Part shown: positions 17,017-29,595 of the stretch, in pieces
How positions within the stretch are numbered: the first letter of the stretch is position 1
How the letters are laid out: each line of letters opens with the position of its first letter
Source: Candidatus Hermodarchaeota archaeon
GTDB lineage: Archaea > Asgardarchaeota > Heimdallarchaeia > Hodarchaeales > Hodarchaeaceae
Direction of reading: 5' to 3'
DNA: 32,000 nt
Assembly (NCBI GenBank): GCA_048886185.1
Contig: JBHLKY010000003.1
Span: 60,001-92,000, forward strand
The notes under the pieces: model-generated
Database searches by the model: none
What the model was told of the DNA's origin: nothing
Seen by the model: the letters and a program-made list of their open reading frames with translations, nothing else
Made by a program: the position numbers and the translations under genes

Positions 17017-18822
17017 TTAGATCCTTCGTACCTGTTTTAAGAATTCTTGATATGCAATTCTAATATATGTTGGTCGTCCATGAGCACAAATCTGTGGATT
17101 ATCTATCTTTACAAGTTGGTGCAGTAGATCTTTTGTTTGTTGGAAGGATAATAATTCTCCTGCACGATAAGAAGCATGACATGCTATTAGATTTAGAATT
17201 TCATTGATTTGCTCTTCAAATACTGTTTTAGGAATGGTATCTAACAATGATCCCAAGAATTTCTTTAAATCGGTCTTTGCTAAGATTCTAGGAATAGCAA
17301 AAACCTCTATTTCTCGTTTGTTTCCTTTAGGGATTCTGAAATCAAATCCTAGGTTGTTAAATTGAGGGAGAGAATCCATTATAAGGATTTGTTGTTCTGG
17401 AGTCAAAAAGAATCGAAATGGTTTAAGAAAAGTTTGAGAACTAACTTTCTTAACCAAGAACATTGCTTTAATCTTTTCTAGGTTAACTCGCTCATGAGCT
17501 GCATGAAAATCGAGAATAATTAGATCATGATTTGCGATATCTTCTAGTAAAAGAAATTCTTTTCCAAGAGGCCCACGAAATCTTAACTCTGTTCCCAAAA
17601 AGGGAATCATTTCAGATTTTTCATTAGTAATAACATCGAAAGGTGTTTCGCTAGCAGTGGTTAGCTCTATACTTTTGAAATCAGGTTGTAGGCTTATTCG
17701 CTGATTTCTATCAGCCCGTTTTGCATCCTTATGAGTTAATGAATGCTTTTTCCCATCGATTTCGTTTATTGATAGCTCAGTTTGAAGTTCTTTCTTTACT
17801 TGTGATCTTAAATGGGGAACCACTGCTTGTGTTTTGAGACAATGTGAGACAGTTGAGGTTAAAGTTGTAATCAATTCTTTTTCTTGAAAAAAAAGAACTT
17901 CACGCTTCTGAGGGTGAATATTCACATCAAAATGACTAGGATCAAGTTCAAGAAATAGAAATGCAGCAGGAAACTCTCGTTTCATCAAATATGATCCATA
18001 TCCTTCCTCCAAGGCTGATTGAAGAATCTTTGAGAAAATACGTCTTCCATTAAGATAAAAAAATTGATATTTCCTGTTTCGTCTGTGATGACCCTGTTTA
18101 CTAAGATAACCATGAATTAGGATATTATCGCGTTGTATGATACCAATATCGAGGAGAGATCCAGCGATGTCTTGACCGAAGGTTTCACTTATAGCAGAAA
18201 GATGATTTTGACTCTTTACTGTCTGAAATTCAAGCTCGCCATCTGAAATATAGGTGAATGAAATTTGAGGATGACCAATAGCATATTGGGCAACAATTTC
18301 GTAAATATAGGATTGTTCAATAGAGGCTTTCTTCAAAAATTTTCTACGTACAATAAAATTAAAAAACAAATCACGAATCTGAACAAGAGTTCCTGGGGAA
18401 GCCATGACCTCTTCTGAAATTTGACTTCTATCTGTATCACCCTCTACTGTGATACGGGTTGCTAGCTCATCTTCAACTGTTCGACTAATAAGAGAGAATC
18501 TAGAAACAGATGCTATTGAATACAACGCTTCTCCGCGGAACCCCAAAGTAGAAATTGAATCTAAGTCTTGTTCGGAACTAATCTTACTAGTGGCGTGACG
18601 TTTGATGGTTAAAGGAAGATCTTCGGGAGGAATTCCCGTTCCATTGTCACGGATTTCTATCAAATCCTTCCCACCATTTTTAATCATCACTCTAATCTCA
18701 GAAGCAGAAGCGTCTATCGCATTTTCCAGTAACTCTTTCACAACACTGGCAGGACGCTCAATAACTTCACCTGCAGCGATTTTACTTACACATATGGGAT
18801 CTAATATCCGAATTCGAGGCAA
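17017..18822 (-). CDS. mutL: DNA mismatch repair endonuclease MutL
   Basis: IAAGEVIERPASVVKELLENAIDA, DNGTG, LGFRGEAL GHKL motifs; C-terminal DFHAAHERVNLE, ACH, CAHGRP. TTG 18822 has AGGAG upstream and avoids overlap with mutS (track start 18852). Confidence 0.96.
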   Translation of the reverse strand: MPRIRILDPICVSKIAAGEVIERPASVVKELLENAIDASASEIRVMIKNGGKDLIEIRDNGTGIPPEDLPLTIKRHATSKISSEQDLDSISTLGFRGEALYSIASVSRFSLISRTVEDELATRITVEGDTDRSQISEEVMASPGTLVQIRDLFFNFIVRRKFLKKASIEQSYIYEIVAQYAIGHPQISFTYISDGELEFQTVKSQNHLSAISETFGQDIAGSLLDIGIIQRDNILIHGYLSKQGHHRRNRKYQFFYLNGRRIFSKILQSALEEGYGSYLMKREFPAAFLFLELDPSHFDVNIHPQKREVLFFQEKELITTLTSTVSHCLKTQAVVPHLRSQVKKELQTELSINEIDGKKHSLTHKDAKRADRNQRISLQPDFKSIELTTASETPFDVITNEKSEMIPFLGTELRFRGPLGKEFLLLEDIANHDLIILDFHAAHERVNLEKIKAMFLVKKVSSQTFLKPFRFFLTPEQQILIMDSLPQFNNLGFDFRIPKGNKREIEVFAIPRILAKTDLKKFLGSLLDTIPKTVFEEQINEILNLIACHASYRAGELLSFQQTKDLLHQLVKIDNPQICAHGRPTYIRIAYQEFLKQVRRI

Positions 18823-18826
18823 ACGG

Positions 18827-21571
18827 TTATATCTCCTGGATCTTCTTCTCAAACTCCTTTATATCTTCGACAAGTTGCCCAAGTTGCTGGAGAGCTTCTA
18901 CCGGTGTTTTATAATTAATATCAATGTCAATATAGTTCTTTAAGAAGGCGAGTATTTCAAACCTTAAATTATTCAATTTATTTTCTAGTTCCTGTTGATT
19001 CACACTCTTTGAGAGAGCCTCCGCAAGGGATAATTGTCTAGGTTGGGTTTCTAGTTTTTTCTTGCTAGTTGGTAATTTTGATGCATCAGATGTGGCCTCT
19101 AGTTCCATTAGTTTCTTCTGAGCCTCAAGAATGACTTGATTTGGAATACCAGCCATTTTAGCGACACTTATTCCAAATGAATGGTCAGTTGAACCCTCCT
19201 CAATCTTATAAAGTAAGATTAACTTACCATTTCGCTCCTTAGCAGTTTGGTGAAAGTTTTTTATTGCAGAGTAGTGTTGTTCTAATTCACTGAGTTGATG
19301 GTAATGCGTAGCAAACAATGTTTTACTTTTTTTCTCTTTTGCAATGTGTTCAGCTATAGCCCATGCCAGAGATAGTCCATCAAAAGTACTAGTACCACGG
19401 CCTACTTCATCTAAGATTATTAACGAATTTGAAGTGGAATTATTTAAGATATGAGCTGTTTCGAGCATTTCCAGCATGAAAGTAGATTGGCCAAACGCGA
19501 GTCTATCAAATGCACCAACACGAGTGAAAATCTTATCTACTATACCTAATTTACAAGTTTTTGCAGGTACCCATGACCCGCTTTGGGCCAGTAAGACAAT
19601 AAGAGCTACTTGTCTAATAAAAACTGACTTACCAGACATGTTGGGGCCAGTTATAATATGGAGTTCCCCTTTCTTTAAAACAGTGTTATTTGGAACAAAT
19701 CCTGTTTCTTTCTGCAGCTGTTCCACCACAGGATGGCGACCATCAGTAATAGCGATATGTGATTCGTCAAGGAATTGAGGCTTACAATAATTGTTTTTTA
19801 TTGCAGTGAATGTAAAACAAATTAACACATCCAATTCTGCGATTAATTCTGAATAACTACGAATACTAGATACCTTTGTGGAGATCATTTCACGAATTTC
19901 ACAAAATAATTGATATTCTAACTCCTTTATTCTCTCATCTGCATTCAGAATTTTCTCTTCAATTTCTTTCAACTCAGGAGTGATAAAGCGTTCTGCACTG
20001 ACCAAGGTTTGCCTTCGAACATATTCAGATGGAATCAATTCCTCTCCTGCATCCCGAAGTTGAGCTTTTGTGACTTCGATATAATATCCATGGACAGAAT
20101 TATAACCCAGTTTTATATTAAAAGGAGTCCGCTCCTGCTCCCGCTGCTCAATCTCTCGCAAAATGCTATCCTGGTTAGTTTTTAATTCCTGTAACTGATT
20201 GAGATTTTCATTATAACTTGGCTTGATGATCTCCCCATCACGAATAGATGCAGGTGGAGATTCGTGTATTCCACGATCTATCAACTCCACAACACTATTG
20301 AGATCTGAAACATCAAAGGTTTCAATTCTGCGAGAAATGGAACTGTGTAATTTATTCTGCTTCAAAAAAGACTGTATTTCTAGACAAAACTTCAATGAAT
20401 CTCTCACAGAGATTAAATCTCTAGCATTAACAGAACGATACTTAATCTTAGCAACTAGCCTCTGAAAATCAGCTACATTAGAAAGGAGACTAGAAATTTC
20501 TTCAATTACTGATAAATTCTGTTTAAATTGGCTTATTGCTTCTAACCGCTCATTAATGATGTTTATATCACGTAAAGGCTGTAATAACCACCTACGTAGT
20601 AATCTAGCACCCATACTAGTGTTAATATCAGTAAAAATAGAGAGTAAACTACCTTCGGTCTTTCCATCGAAAGCATTTGCAACAATTTCAAGATTTCTTT
20701 GTGCATTAGAATCGAGTATCAAGTAGTTACGATTGTCTAGAGTACGAAGAGACGATATATTACTAGGATAGTCTTTTTTGAGCAATTTTAAATATGAAAT
20801 TAAGGCACCTGCGGCTCGTACTCCCTCAACCATTGAGTCACAACCATATCCAGCAAGTGATTTAACTCCGAAGTGAGTTAGTAAAGTCTGGTAAGCCGTG
20901 TCGAAATTAAAGAGTGTTTCATTTACGGGATAAACAACGGTTTGTGAGGAAGAAGTAATAACTTTTTCCAATGATGTTTGTATTTTTCCTTTTTGCTGAA
21001 CATCAGCAAAAATCACTTCTCGAGGGGTGAAACGAGATAATTCATCTTGAAAATTGTCAATAATATTCTCTTTGAATTCAGTAGCTAAGAATTCTCCAGT
21101 TGAGATATCAACCAGTGATATCCCAACTTTTTGTTGTTTCTCGTTAATGGCTGTGCTTAATAGAAAATTATTGGTTCTTTTATCTAATATAGATGGTTCG
21201 AACACCGTTCCTGGGGTTATAACGCGAGTAACTCCCCTTTTTACGATTCTTCCAGAAGGAACGTTCTTTGCATCCTCTAATTGGTCAACAATTGCGACTT
21301 TAAATCCCTGATCAATCATTTTTTTAATATAAGTATCAATGGCTTTGACAGGAACCCCTGCTAGAGGGATTCTTTCACCACTTACCCCCATACTTCTTGA
21401 CGTAAGTGTGATATCAAGCGCTTTAGAAGTTATTTTAGCATCCTCATTAAAAGTTTCGTAGAAATCACCTAACTGGAAAAAAACGATAGTATCTTTGTGC
21501 GCGTCTTTAATATTATAATACTGACGCATAGCCTCGGTTGTTTTTCTTGGTTTTCTACTCATTGGCTCCAT
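18827..21571 (-). CDS. mutS: DNA mismatch repair protein MutS (MutS1)
   Basis: GDFYETF mismatch-binding motif, GRHPVVE, GPNMSGKS, STFMLEM, DEVGRGTSTFDG, FATHY. Confidence 0.97.
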   Translation of the reverse strand: MEPMSRKPRKTTEAMRQYYNIKDAHKDTIVFFQLGDFYETFNEDAKITSKALDITLTSRSMGVSGERIPLAGVPVKAIDTYIKKMIDQGFKVAIVDQLEDAKNVPSGRIVKRGVTRVITPGTVFEPSILDKRTNNFLLSTAINEKQQKVGISLVDISTGEFLATEFKENIIDNFQDELSRFTPREVIFADVQQKGKIQTSLEKVITSSSQTVVYPVNETLFNFDTAYQTLLTHFGVKSLAGYGCDSMVEGVRAAGALISYLKLLKKDYPSNISSLRTLDNRNYLILDSNAQRNLEIVANAFDGKTEGSLLSIFTDINTSMGARLLRRWLLQPLRDINIINERLEAISQFKQNLSVIEEISSLLSNVADFQRLVAKIKYRSVNARDLISVRDSLKFCLEIQSFLKQNKLHSSISRRIETFDVSDLNSVVELIDRGIHESPPASIRDGEIIKPSYNENLNQLQELKTNQDSILREIEQREQERTPFNIKLGYNSVHGYYIEVTKAQLRDAGEELIPSEYVRRQTLVSAERFITPELKEIEEKILNADERIKELEYQLFCEIREMISTKVSSIRSYSELIAELDVLICFTFTAIKNNYCKPQFLDESHIAITDGRHPVVEQLQKETGFVPNNTVLKKGELHIITGPNMSGKSVFIRQVALIVLLAQSGSWVPAKTCKLGIVDKIFTRVGAFDRLAFGQSTFMLEMLETAHILNNSTSNSLIILDEVGRGTSTFDGLSLAWAIAEHIAKEKKSKTLFATHYHQLSELEQHYSAIKNFHQTAKERNGKLILLYKIEEGSTDHSFGISVAKMAGIPNQVILEAQKKLMELEATSDASKLPTSKKKLETQPRQLSLAEALSKSVNQQELENKLNNLRFEILAFLKNYIDIDINYKTPVEALQQLGQLVEDIKEFEKKIQEI

Positions 21572-26934: not shown

Positions 26935-27804
26935 GTGGACATTGAAAAAGCAATATCCGAAATTCAAGAGAAATTTGGTGTCGTTGGGCGTGAAAGTTCA
27001 CTCCGCAAGCTCATCTTAGGGAAACAAGCAGGTAAGCATATCATTATTGAGGGTCCTGTGGGTGTTGGAAAAACAACCTTAGCGCATGCGGTTGCAGCAT
27101 ATTTTGACCAGGGTTTCATTCGTATTGACGGTGATGAACGATATACAGAAAGTAAACTAGTTGGTCATTTTGAGCCTCCATTAGTGGTAGAAAAAGGGTG
27201 GATATGGGACGCATTTGTTCCAGGTCCGCTGACGTTAGCAATGAAGAACGGATCAATTCTGTTCATCAACGAAGCAAACCGCTTGATTGAGGGAACCCAA
27301 AATGTACTACTTCCTTCTATGGATGAAGGATTACTTATTTTACCTAAATTAGGAGTTATTAGGGCAACAGACGGCTTTCTTGTTGTCGCAACTCAGAATC
27401 CAGAGTCTTATATTGGGACTACCGTCCTTTCAGAAGCATTAAAAGATCGTTTCGTTTGGATTAAACTGGAACATCAAGGATTTGAAGAAGAAGTCGACAT
27501 CGTTGAACAGAAAGCAGGTATTGGACCAGAAGATAGATTGATCTCAGAGACTGCCACAAAAATCACAAGAGCAACACGAAAGCATCCTGATATCCGACGT
27601 GGATCATCAATTCGAGGAGCAATTGACCTAGCCAAAATCCTGTATTTAGTAAAGAGTTTAAATCTGGAAACTGTTTCTGAAATGGCTATCATGACCCTAG
27701 CAACAAAAATCGAATTAGAGGATGGCGTCGAGAGACCAATTGAAAGTGTGATTCATGAAATTGTTGAAGCTGTATTATCAGGGGACGAAGACCGTTTTTT
27801 ATAG
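26935..27804 (+). CDS. MoxR-family AAA+ ATPase (289 aa; also the N-terminal half of a predicted frameshift fusion)
   Basis: GPVGVGKT Walker A, FINEANR (Walker B with D>N), ATQNP, ALKDRF, SSIRGAIDL; AGGTGA SD 6 nt before GTG. Confidence 0.93.
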   Translation: MDIEKAISEIQEKFGVVGRESSLRKLILGKQAGKHIIIEGPVGVGKTTLAHAVAAYFDQGFIRIDGDERYTESKLVGHFEPPLVVEKGWIWDAFVPGPLTLAMKNGSILFINEANRLIEGTQNVLLPSMDEGLLILPKLGVIRATDGFLVVATQNPESYIGTTVLSEALKDRFVWIKLEHQGFEEEVDIVEQKAGIGPEDRLISETATKITRATRKHPDIRRGSSIRGAIDLAKILYLVKSLNLETVSEMAIMTLATKIELEDGVERPIESVIHEIVEAVLSGDEDRFL

Positions 27805-27831
27805 ATAAATCCCGAGAATCCACTCGGGATT
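27780..27831 (+). promoter_or_regulatory. Candidate -1 programmed ribosomal frameshift signal
   Basis: AGGGG (27780-84), 10 nt, T-TTT-TTA heptamer (27795-27801, in the MoxR frame), 6-nt spacer containing the MoxR TAG, 9-bp hairpin AATCCCGAG/CTCGGGATT (27808-16/27823-31). Confidence 0.75.
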
Positions 27832-27926
27832 ACAACAAGAATATTCGTCTATTTGGTCGATTAAAACTAGAGGACCTGGCAGAAGCCGCTATTGCCTCAG
27901 GAGATACTCTACCTAAACTCGATAAA

Positions 27927-28871
27927 TTGGACCTAGCTAGCATTGAACGTTTAACAGAATCAGCTATTGAACATGAGAATCTTCCTGCTTTAATGTCCTT
28001 GGCTAAAATTAACAAATATGCGGTATCCAACACCTTAAGAACGGATAGAATCGTCTCTTTGGGTCGCGTAGCAGGATCTGGAGGTATTTACACTCCACGC
28101 CTCTACTTTGTTATGAGAGGGGTTCTTGATATCAAACGAAGAAAAATTTTGAAAAGATTAACACGTACATCGATCTTAAAATTGTCTTTACGAATTGCAT
28201 CGGAAGGTTTGAGAGGAGATTTACCTATCCGAGGGGAATATCAACCAGAAAGTGATTTCGATCTTGATGCAACAATGGATCAGTTACTTGAAAAATATCC
28301 AACTGGCATTCCTACTTTGAGAAGAAGTGATATTGTGGGTATTGAACGTCGAGAGAGGAAAAAAAATGGAGTGCTTATCTTGGATGCCAGTGGTTCCATG
28401 ATGGGGGAACGAAATATTAACGCAGCTTTATCTGCTGCAGTAATGGCTTATTCAATGCGCCATGATAAATTTGGAGTAGTTGCTTTCAATACCAAAGCAT
28501 TTTTGATCAAAGGAATCAAAGATGACCTTGCAATACAAGATATCATGGATAAAATACTAGATTTAGAAGCAGTAGGATATACAAATATTGAAGATGCCTT
28601 GAGAGTAGGGGCGTTACAATTACAAGGACTAAAAACTCGATTCAAATGGGCAATTTTATTAACTGATGGTGCCTATAACAAGGGAGATGATCCACGCTAC
28701 TTGTGTAAACAGTTTGAAAAGCTTCATGTGCTAAATTTACCAGGAGGGAAGAAATGGGGTGAGCGTGTCTGTAAAGATTTAGCCCGCTTAGGCGGCGGAC
28801 GATATGTTGTCGTTAGAGACTATTCTGAAGTTCCGCGCGCACTGATGAAGATTCTCAGATCTCCTTGGTGA
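27927..28871 (+). CDS. VWA (MIDAS) domain protein, CoxE-like; probably translated from 27801 as a -1 frameshift extension of MoxR
   Basis: ILDASGSM, GYTNI, LLTDG intact MIDAS; reading frame open from 27768 with no ATG/GTG/TTG before 27927. Confidence 0.88.
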   Translation: MDLASIERLTESAIEHENLPALMSLAKINKYAVSNTLRTDRIVSLGRVAGSGGIYTPRLYFVMRGVLDIKRRKILKRLTRTSILKLSLRIASEGLRGDLPIRGEYQPESDFDLDATMDQLLEKYPTGIPTLRRSDIVGIERRERKKNGVLILDASGSMMGERNINAALSAAVMAYSMRHDKFGVVAFNTKAFLIKGIKDDLAIQDIMDKILDLEAVGYTNIEDALRVGALQLQGLKTRFKWAILLTDGAYNKGDDPRYLCKQFEKLHVLNLPGGKKWGERVCKDLARLGGGRYVVVRDYSEVPRALMKILRSPW

Positions 28872-29595
28872 GAACTTTTTTCAGCCGATCAGGAAAATTG
28901 GTCAGTATTCCATCCACTCCTAATTTAATGACTTCTTTTATATCAGCTATTTCATCAGCATAAAAATAGAAGATTTTGATGTCTTTCTCCTTACATTTCT
29001 TTAAAAAGGAGGATTTAAGTGCAGACCAACGGATTTGAGCTGTTTTCAGCTCTAATTTTAGTAAAAGGTCAAAATATTCTTCAGGATTGCGTTCTTTTTG
29101 TAATAGGGCACAATTAATGTCTGGCGCTATTTCTTGTAATTTAACTATATTTTCAATATGTCTCGCTGTTATCACCGTTCTATCTTCTATGTTAAATTTC
29201 TTGATAGTATTAATGATCTCTTTCTCAAACCAGTTAGAGAGGGGATTATAATATTTCAGCTCTATATTATATGACACTTTTGTGGATGAAGTGTTTTTTA
29301 ATACCTCAGAGACAGTTGGAATCCTTTCACCTTTAAATTTCTGATCGAACCAGCTTCCTGCATCCAGTGATTTCAAATAGTCAAGAGTTAAGTCTGGTAT
29401 TTTTCCTTTACCATTAGTAGTTCTTTCAATTCCATCACGATCATGATACACCATTAGCTGTGAATCTTTAGAAGGTTGGACATCAAATTCAATCATATCA
29501 GCATAAATTACTCCTCGCTCAAAGCATGCAAGAGTATTTTCTGGAGCTAATCCTGCTCCTCCACGATGGGCTATATTGAGGATCATTTGTGTCAC
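28855..29595 (-). CDS. Glycerophosphodiester phosphodiesterase (GDPD)
   Basis: IAHRGGAG..PENT, IEFDV, HD, ERIPT, NIELK, GILTNFPD; convergent 17-nt overlap with the VWA gene. Confidence 0.93.
   Translation of the reverse strand: MTQMILNIAHRGGAGLAPENTLACFERGVIYADMIEFDVQPSKDSQLMVYHDRDGIERTTNGKGKIPDLTLDYLKSLDAGSWFDQKFKGERIPTVSEVLKNTSSTKVSYNIELKYYNPLSNWFEKEIINTIKKFNIEDRTVITARHIENIVKLQEIAPDINCALLQKERNPEEYFDLLLKLELKTAQIRWSALKSSFLKKCKEKDIKIFYFYADEIADIKEVIKLGVDGILTNFPDRLKKVLTKEI

Follow-up and report, generated by a model that had tools for sequence, protein, structure and literature searches.

In genes of the fs-chlD type, an AAA open reading frame (ORF) and a VWA ORF are joined by programmed −1 ribosomal frameshifting (−1 PRF), which yields a chelatase's small and medium subunits; measurements in E. 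coli gave efficiencies of 10-63%, and some relatives are fused (PMC3711429, PMC9227772). In NorQ-NorD complexes there is one NorD per NorQ hexamer, and NorD's N-terminal domain docks on the helical C-terminal subdomain of a single NorQ (PMC13036017). Among Archaea, a 2021 review gives fucA1 of Saccharolobus solfataricus as the only experimentally proven case of cellular −1 PRF (PMC8211752). We analyzed a 32,000-nucleotide (nt) stretch of DNA from a Candidatus Hermodarchaeota archaeon (positions 60,001 to 92,000 of contig JBHLKY010000003.1, assembly GCA_048886185.1; hereafter the window), in which a VWA ORF comes after an ORF for a MoxR-like AAA+ ATPase and lies in the −1 frame relative to it. 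By the names that its homologues bear, the genome falls within the Asgard archaea (Heimdallarchaeia/Hodarchaeales). The original prediction for this locus was that a programmed −1 frameshift makes both a free ATPase and an ATPase-VWA fusion, and it pointed to chlD-type genes as precedent, which the fs-chlD studies bear out. The comparative evidence presented here supports that interpretation, which stays a prediction from sequence. We conclude that the two ORFs are likely to be one recoded gene that yields, by −1 PRF, the ATPase alone and an ATPase-VWA fusion. A literature search for PRF in Asgard archaea or frameshifting in MoxR-VWA genes returned nothing relevant.

All parts of the locus lie on the plus strand. 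The MoxR-like ORF (26935-27804) encodes 289 amino acids, begins with GTG, has GGTGA 6 nt upstream, and ends with CGT (27793-27795), TTT (27796-27798), TTA (27799-27801) and the stop codon TAG (27802-27804). These last codons contain the slippery heptamer T_TTT_TTA (27795-27801), an X_XXY_YYZ sequence in phase with the MoxR frame. U_UUU_UUA is also the slippery heptamer of HIV-1 gag-pol. The stop codon sits directly 3' of the heptamer, inside a spacer of 6 nt (27802-27807), which places the hairpin that follows (27808-27831) within the distance of 5-9 nt at which a canonical −1 PRF site has its stimulatory structure. The hairpin has a 9-bp stem with a 7-bp GC-rich core, formed by the arms AATCCCGAG (27808-27816) and CTCGGGATT (27823-27831), and a 6-nt loop, AATCCA (27817-27822). 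The −1 frame is open from 27768 to a stop codon at 28869-28871 and, read after the shift, forms an ORF of 356 codons plus stop (27801-28871). Past the MoxR stop, its earliest candidate start among ATG, GTG and TTG is the TTG at 27927, and ATG first occurs at 27993. Products of 289 and 645 amino acids are predicted. On re-reading the sequence we found each of these elements as first described: the phased heptamer, the hairpin after 6 nt, the VWA ORF in the −1 frame with no standard start until 27927, and both product sizes.

We compared 19 loci from the genus of this archaeon, with 85-96% amino-acid identity, and analyzed codon usage in the 17 gapless orthologues among them. The T_TTT_TTA heptamer was present in 19/19 loci, and the last three sense codons of the MoxR ORF, CGT, TTT and TTA, were invariant in 17/17 gapless orthologues. 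Arginine and leucine codons are six-fold degenerate. Across the same 17 orthologues, conserved degenerate codons of the MoxR ORF had a mean synonymous entropy of 1.22 bits, and 4% of them were invariant. The MoxR stop codon was variable (TAG, TAA or TGA) whereas the heptamer was not, and in two genomes an extra codon stood between heptamer and stop. In one species (L011), the −1 frame is closed by a stop codon 10 nt before the MoxR stop, and therefore the frame change must fall at the heptamer. The heptamer and the −1 overlap, whose conservation the original prediction had proposed to check, are thus kept in the orthologues. The signal is conserved beyond what the protein needs, with invariant synonymous sites in both the heptamer and the stem arms. 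A further element had been proposed upstream, a Shine-Dalgarno (SD)-like stimulator with the geometry of E. coli dnaX. We did find AGGGG at 27780-27784, 10 nt upstream of the heptamer, but the glycine codon inside it varies freely, using all four synonyms across the genus, and we rejected a stimulatory role for this motif.

The 40 nt from the MoxR stop fold at −14.1 kcal/mol, which is matched by 0.6% of equal-length segments elsewhere in both genes, and the 9-bp stem dominates the predicted fold. On the genus alignment, the arms pair in 92% of cells, compared with 18-54% when the partner is slid. The serine codon and both arginine codons in the hairpin arms are fixed or nearly so (TCC, CGA/CGG and CGG), arginine and leucine codons a few positions downstream of the arms use three to five synonyms, and the loop codons change their amino acid freely. 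One stem pair runs through the series A-U, G-U and G-C within the genus, and other families have wholly different stems; the hairpin is thus conserved, as the original prediction had asked to see. We rejected the hairpin as a transcription terminator, as no T-tract follows it and it was unlisted in a terminator scan, and a search of the hairpin against Rfam gave no family match.

Between the MoxR stop and +125, substitutions among the genus orthologues are three-periodic in the −1 frame, with a summed column entropy of 13.2, 6.1 and 48.3 at the first, second and third codon positions, and tblastn alignments to the orthologues start at the first −1 codon, at the MoxR stop. From these patterns in the sequence alignments, the start-less stretch is under protein-level selection. 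The first canonical start in the VWA frame differs by species within the genus (−1, +14, +59, +62, +65, +125, +188 or +191), and because of this the public annotations give the VWA gene as 279, 292, 334, 336 or 356 amino acids. An independent start codon of the VWA ORF in orthologues, which had been named as an observation that would speak against frameshifting, did not appear: no start codon was conserved across them. The −1 ORF is thus open across the site and encodes a conserved protein that lacks a conserved start of its own, as is expected of canonical −1 PRF. A paralogous pair elsewhere in the same genome (L032, contig C9), consisting of a MoxR ATPase of 284 amino acids and a VWA protein of 293, has a conventional start codon, an ATG that lies 140 nt beyond the ATPase stop, and therefore the organism does not generally lack start codons at this place.

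The first ORF matched the Pfam families AAA_5 (E-value of 1e-17; 64.9 bits against a cut-off of 22) and AAA_3. Its Walker A motif is GPVGVGKT, in which G34, G36, K37 and T38 are invariant in 16 orthologues. The second ORF matched VWA_2, VWA_CoxE and VWA_3, and the residues D195, S197, G198 and S199 of its metal ion-dependent adhesion site (MIDAS) are invariant in 46 orthologues. With a Walker A-bearing ATPase above the Pfam threshold for AAA_5 and a directly downstream ORF predicted to encode the VWA/MIDAS partner, the pair has the features of the MoxR class. An AlphaFold2 model of the VWA protein, built with 46 orthologues, had a mean predicted local distance difference test score (pLDDT) of 82.5. 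In this model residues 1-18 are disordered (pLDDT below 50), helices begin at residue 23, an N-terminal helical domain spans residues 23-133 of the −1 ORF (27867-28199), and the VWA domain, as delimited by Pfam, lies at 28371-28808 with an intact MIDAS motif, D-A-S-G-S, at 28383-28397. A start at the TTG at 27927 (residue 43) or at the conserved ATG at 27993 (residue 65) would delete one to three helices of the N-terminal domain, whose fold is predicted with confidence. Among single-domain chains in the PDB the ATPase was most similar to NorQ/CbbQ, over nearly the whole chain, and the fold closest to the VWA model was the NorD VWA domain in NorQ-NorD complexes. The original prediction spoke of a MoxR/CoxD-CoxE-type system; the MoxR-VWA class holds, and the nearest relatives are of the NorQ/NorD type and not CoxD/CoxE specifically. 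Eukaryotic midasin ranked first in the PDB search. We rejected it as a special relative, since its E-value of 6.5e-33 sums six AAA_5 repeats, none of which exceeds about 30 bits, compared with 46.6 bits for NorQ, and we found no specific similarity to Midasin/Rea1 beyond the generic AAA_5 and MIDAS folds.

The locus resembles fs-chlD in its design: one locus has an AAA+ ORF and then a VWA ORF in another frame, with an AT-rich slippery site and a downstream structure; the subunits, predicted in the present case, are a short AAA and a long AAA-linker-VWA form; relatives carry in-frame fusions; and the arrangement occurs in both bacteria and archaea. It differs in the ATPase, which is of the AAA_5/MoxR, NorQ/CbbQ-like kind here, and in the slippery site, since the chlD sites that were tested consist of 7-11 nt of poly-A and the site here is U_UUU_UUA at a stop codon. 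The ATPase scored below the cut-offs of three chelatase models (Mg_chelatase, 16.8 against 20.3 bits; TIGR02031, 27 against 499.55; TIGR02442, 25 against 779.45), and CobN/ChlH (PF02514) was not found in the organism's own genome, which is 96% complete, while control genomes gave matches. With these results, we rejected an assignment to fs-chlD or to the medium subunit of a class I chelatase. The locus also resembles the NorQ-NorD and CbbQ-CbbO remodelling complexes, with the best matches of both the ATPase and the VWA protein and a partner of the same N-domain, linker and VWA/MIDAS layout. In contrast to the partner here, which has no conserved start, those partners are encoded by separate genes with their own starts and are tethered non-covalently. 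No nor or cbb genes were seen near the locus when its gene context was inspected.

As a recoding signal, the site is most like those of HIV-1 and dnaX, with a simple 3' stem-loop at about 6 nt, and differs from both in having the 0-frame stop immediately after the heptamer. As in dnaX, the two predicted products have their N-terminus in common and would form part of a single AAA+ assembly; unlike in dnaX, frameshifting here would yield the longer product and not the shorter one, and an upstream SD stimulator is not conserved. The archaeal gene fucA1 is likewise a cellular gene split into 0-frame and −1 ORFs with a heptamer and a putative stem-loop. It occurs in only a few strains and has full-length relatives, whereas the signal here is genus-wide and a shorter form of it extends across most of the phylum. 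What is new here is programmed frameshifting as the predicted link between a MoxR/AAA_5-class ATPase and its VWA partner; the principle is already known from chlD.

Beyond the genus, ATPase orthologues (E ≤ 1e-60) were found in 241 of 400 genomes of the phylum, and we surveyed the junction at 97 loci from 21 families. The VWA ORF was in the −1 frame at 83 loci (18 families), in the +1 frame at 10 loci (three families), and fused in frame at four loci (one family). At the 83 −1 loci, the −1 frame opens at most 13 nt before the stop in 27 of the 83, and in 80 of them the three final sense codons contain a T_TTN in phase, for which the chance expectation is about 9.5% per locus; examples of such junctions are GAT TTT CAA TAA, AAT TTT TGA and GAT TTT TTC TAG. 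The remaining three loci comprise two with C_CCT and one with a T-run five codons upstream. U_UUY and C_CCY are among the tetramers that allow −1 frameshifting in E. coli with a 3' stimulator (PMC4066793). Across this sample, the VWA frame has its first canonical start anywhere from −19 to +605. At the 83 loci, the 40 nt from the stop fold at a mean of −10.1 kcal/mol, compared with −4.5 kcal/mol in control segments from the same genes, and 49 of the 83 are in the top 5% of control segments for folding. The stems occupy one and the same position, with sequences that are unrelated from family to family (CCCGAG/CUCGGG, CGCACGGCC/GGCCGUGCG, GGGAAUUC/GAAUUCCC and GAGGAGG/CCUCC). A perfect 7/7 stem was counted in 32% of loci against 0.6% of controls, a crude fixed-arm count that indicates enrichment only, since registers differ between loci. 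Taken together, the junction sequences indicate that the phenomenon covers most of the Asgard phylum, mostly with the shorter U_UUN site.

Several features of the surveyed junctions are recorded here as side observations. In many Asgard loci (for example L042-L044, L050-L051 and L068-L075), GATGA directly follows the 3' arm of the junction hairpin, about 20-40 nt past the MoxR stop. It encodes (S/P)-D-D/E in the −1 frame, its ATG is in the MoxR frame, and the 5' arm of the hairpin in GATGA-bearing loci is often the SD-like GAGGAGG. In the Loki-type alignment A4 (L083-L170), columns 6-31 form a block of 26 nt, GGATTTT(C/T)A(A/G)TA(A/G)TCGATGATTTCTC, that is almost invariant in 25 species, the proteins of which are only about 50% identical to those of the window. 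CAA or TAA at one codon of this block shifts the MoxR stop by one codon and leaves the −1 reading unchanged.

At the +1 loci (L030 and L062-L067, of family f4, and also L035, L078 and L079), the MoxR ORF ends in K-F-F-R-x(-x)-stop (AAG TTT TTT CGG ...), and the +1 frame reads the same T6 run as F-F-G-P and is open 20-44 nt upstream. An ATG lies 10-13 nt after the stop in most of them, L062 excepted. These loci could be either ordinary separate genes or sites of a +1 shift at UUU_CGG. The four in-frame fusions within Asgard (L036, L041, L076 and L077), of 669-716 amino acids, all belong to genus g61, which is of the Njordarchaeia type and which also contains two of the +1 loci (L078 and L079). 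The fusions keep Phe-Phe (Phe-Phe-Arg) at the position equivalent to the shift site and continue with a longer low-complexity linker and then the same helical domain and VWA domain. In-frame fused orthologues, another proposed check of the original prediction, therefore exist in one Asgard genus. Further in-frame AAA-linker-VWA fusions were found in Thermoplasmata (L137, L138, L154, L157, L163, L168 and L172) and at L128, L132 and L181, and all in-frame fusions together span about 600-716 amino acids.

Outside Asgard, there are homologues with 45-52% identity in which a phased slippery motif precedes a VWA part that is in the −1 frame. This motif is C_CCA_AAA GYC TGA, one codon ahead of the stop, in Thermoleophilia and a deltaproteobacterial metagenome-assembled genome (MAG) (L167, L171, L173, L176, L179 and L180), an A-run in Spirochaetia (L174), T_TTT_TTA CTG TAA in a Thermoproteota MAG (L127), and AAT TTT TGA in Nitrososphaerota (L139). 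In high-GC genomes an open −1 frame alone is weak evidence. We lean, by a narrow margin over even chances, toward an ancient and phylum-wide recoding, in which most Asgard archaea (18 of the 21 families sampled), together with certain other archaea and bacteria, make the VWA arm only by a −1 slip at a stop-adjacent U_UUN or C_CCU or at a heptamer, with the efficiency of the slip setting about one tethered VWA per AAA+ hexamer.

A different explanation is that two separate proteins are made by translational coupling, with ribosomes re-initiating at the AUA that overlaps the stop codon (A-UAG), or at another non-canonical codon, to give a free VWA protein of 356 amino acids. A four-base overlap of stop and start codons is the commonest coupling arrangement in prokaryotes, which counts for this explanation. 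The codon overlapping the stop is ATA in most members of the genus, ATG in two of them (L009 and L019, as ATGA), and TTG in several other families, and a canonical start lies at or before +3 in 13 of the 83 −1 loci, where coupled re-initiation could work. Other families, though, have CTA, TTA, CTG or TCA at this position, none of which is a start codon. At the window's locus no SD motif precedes the AUA, AGGGG not being conserved, and a stable hairpin 6 nt past a start codon would hinder initiation. Coupling also leaves the fixed synonymous sites of CGT TTT, upstream of the AUA, unexplained, and the existence of fused orthologues shows the covalently joined AAA-VWA form to be functional. We therefore regard coupling as improbable, though the better of the alternatives to frameshifting.

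The start codons just described weigh against −1 PRF, and other observations do so as well. Five of the nine stem pairs never vary within the genus, so that covariation is thin, and 15 of 500 shuffles reach the observed covariation score; the genus alignments thus suggest that the evidence for the stem is mainly conservation and not covariation. The hairpin arms also encode conserved Ser-Arg and Arg-Asp residues. A formal covariation analysis of the Loki-type group, in which sequence conservation dominated and only two pairs had changed on both sides, was weak and carries no weight in our argument. In family f4, the +1 frame and the ATG 10-13 nt after the stop suggest that separate genes are viable for this system. 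Related genomes are also not independent, which makes the count of families a safer figure than the count of loci.

Frameshifting on the ribosome can also be set against slippage during transcription, in which RNA polymerase would add one U in the T6 run, placing the fusion in frame in part of the mRNAs. The run is a homopolymer, and there are bacterial genes, Thermus dnaX among them (cited in PMC3711429), in which transcriptional realignment leads to two products. The T6 run is nevertheless below the length of runs reported to slip (over 7 for A and over 8 for T; PMC3711429), only four T's, or C_CCT, are present at the site in most related families, and such slippage needs neither a phased heptamer nor a 3' hairpin at 6-nt spacing. 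We consider it very unlikely. We give least credit to an artefact or decay, by which an indel arose in assembly or a gene once fused was recently frameshifted, leaving the VWA part untranslated. In its favour, relatives do carry in-frame fusions and homopolymers are classic indel sites. Against it, the same offset and heptamer recur in 19 independently assembled genomes of the genus and the −1 arrangement in 18 families, strong purifying selection acts on the VWA ORF and on its start-less leader, the MIDAS residues are invariant, and T6 is found in four assemblies.

The last point concerns the run itself, which the original prediction had asked to see confirmed. Logan assemblies of four sequencing runs, at depths of 12-46, have T6 without an indel; the four runs come from a single study and are possibly the source samples. 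Among the sequencing runs listed for this stretch, none was of RNA. In two of these assemblies (X1 and X4), unitigs end or overlap exactly across the heptamer and hairpin (27788-27817), and in the other two runs this junction is spanned in one piece. The unitig breaks may reflect strain variants at the junction or an effect of the assembly graph. Because all 19 genomes of other species in the genus have the VWA ORF in the −1 frame, an assembly error or a recent mutation is excluded.

Under −1 PRF, most ribosomes on the MoxR-like ORF would stop at the TAG at 27802 and release the complete 289-amino-acid ATPase. Some would slip back by one base while tRNA-Phe is on UUU in the P site and tRNA-Leu is on UUA in the A site, with the hairpin 6 nt downstream sitting at the mRNA entrance. 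Both tRNAs would re-pair on UUU UUU, and reading would go on in the −1 frame with AUA GAU AAA. We infer that this simultaneous slippage, stimulated by the hairpin, competes with termination at the adjacent stop codon; its occurrence and efficiency are predicted from sequence. The 645-amino-acid product would consist of the AAA+ module, a linker of about 18 disordered residues, the helical domain and the VWA/MIDAS domain, with ...DRFL-IDKSR... as the junction peptide. The VWA partner is probably made here only as a C-terminal extension of the ATPase. By analogy with NorQ-NorD, the short and long forms may co-assemble as a hexamer with about one tethered VWA arm, in which the covalent link from the ATPase C-terminus to the VWA N-terminus would mimic the NorQ6:NorD1 geometry. 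If slips were modestly frequent, each ring would receive roughly one long subunit, and it is in this sense that we infer the fixed stoichiometry that the original prediction put forward. The machine would have a role in remodelling or metal insertion.

The gene neighbourhood, which comprises MutS, a BNR-repeat protein, glycerophosphodiester phosphodiesterase (GDPD) and small regulators, offered no functional clue. The 3' end of the VWA ORF overlaps the convergent GDPD gene on the minus strand (28855-29595) by 17 nt (28855-28871). As a separate observation, the MutS encoded in this Asgard genome (18827-21571, minus strand) is a full-length bacterial-type protein with domains I-V, and another large ORF (17017-18852) lies upstream of its gene.

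For annotation, the analysis means that the starts of the VWA gene in public records are arbitrary and that the true product is probably the protein of 645 amino acids; hundreds of Asgard annotations would need a join. With its textbook-shaped signal, the locus lends itself, as a natural system, to studies of frameshifting by the eukaryote-like ribosomes of archaea. If the phylum-wide reading is true, this would be the first case in Archaea of a cellular frameshift with broad conservation, it would occur in the closest prokaryotic relatives of eukaryotes, and this genus would use a heptamer of the eukaryote and retrovirus type. The locus further suggests that MoxR-VWA machines can fix the ratio of hexamer to adaptor by translation, which parallels chlD and dnaX and fits the structures with one NorD per NorQ hexamer.

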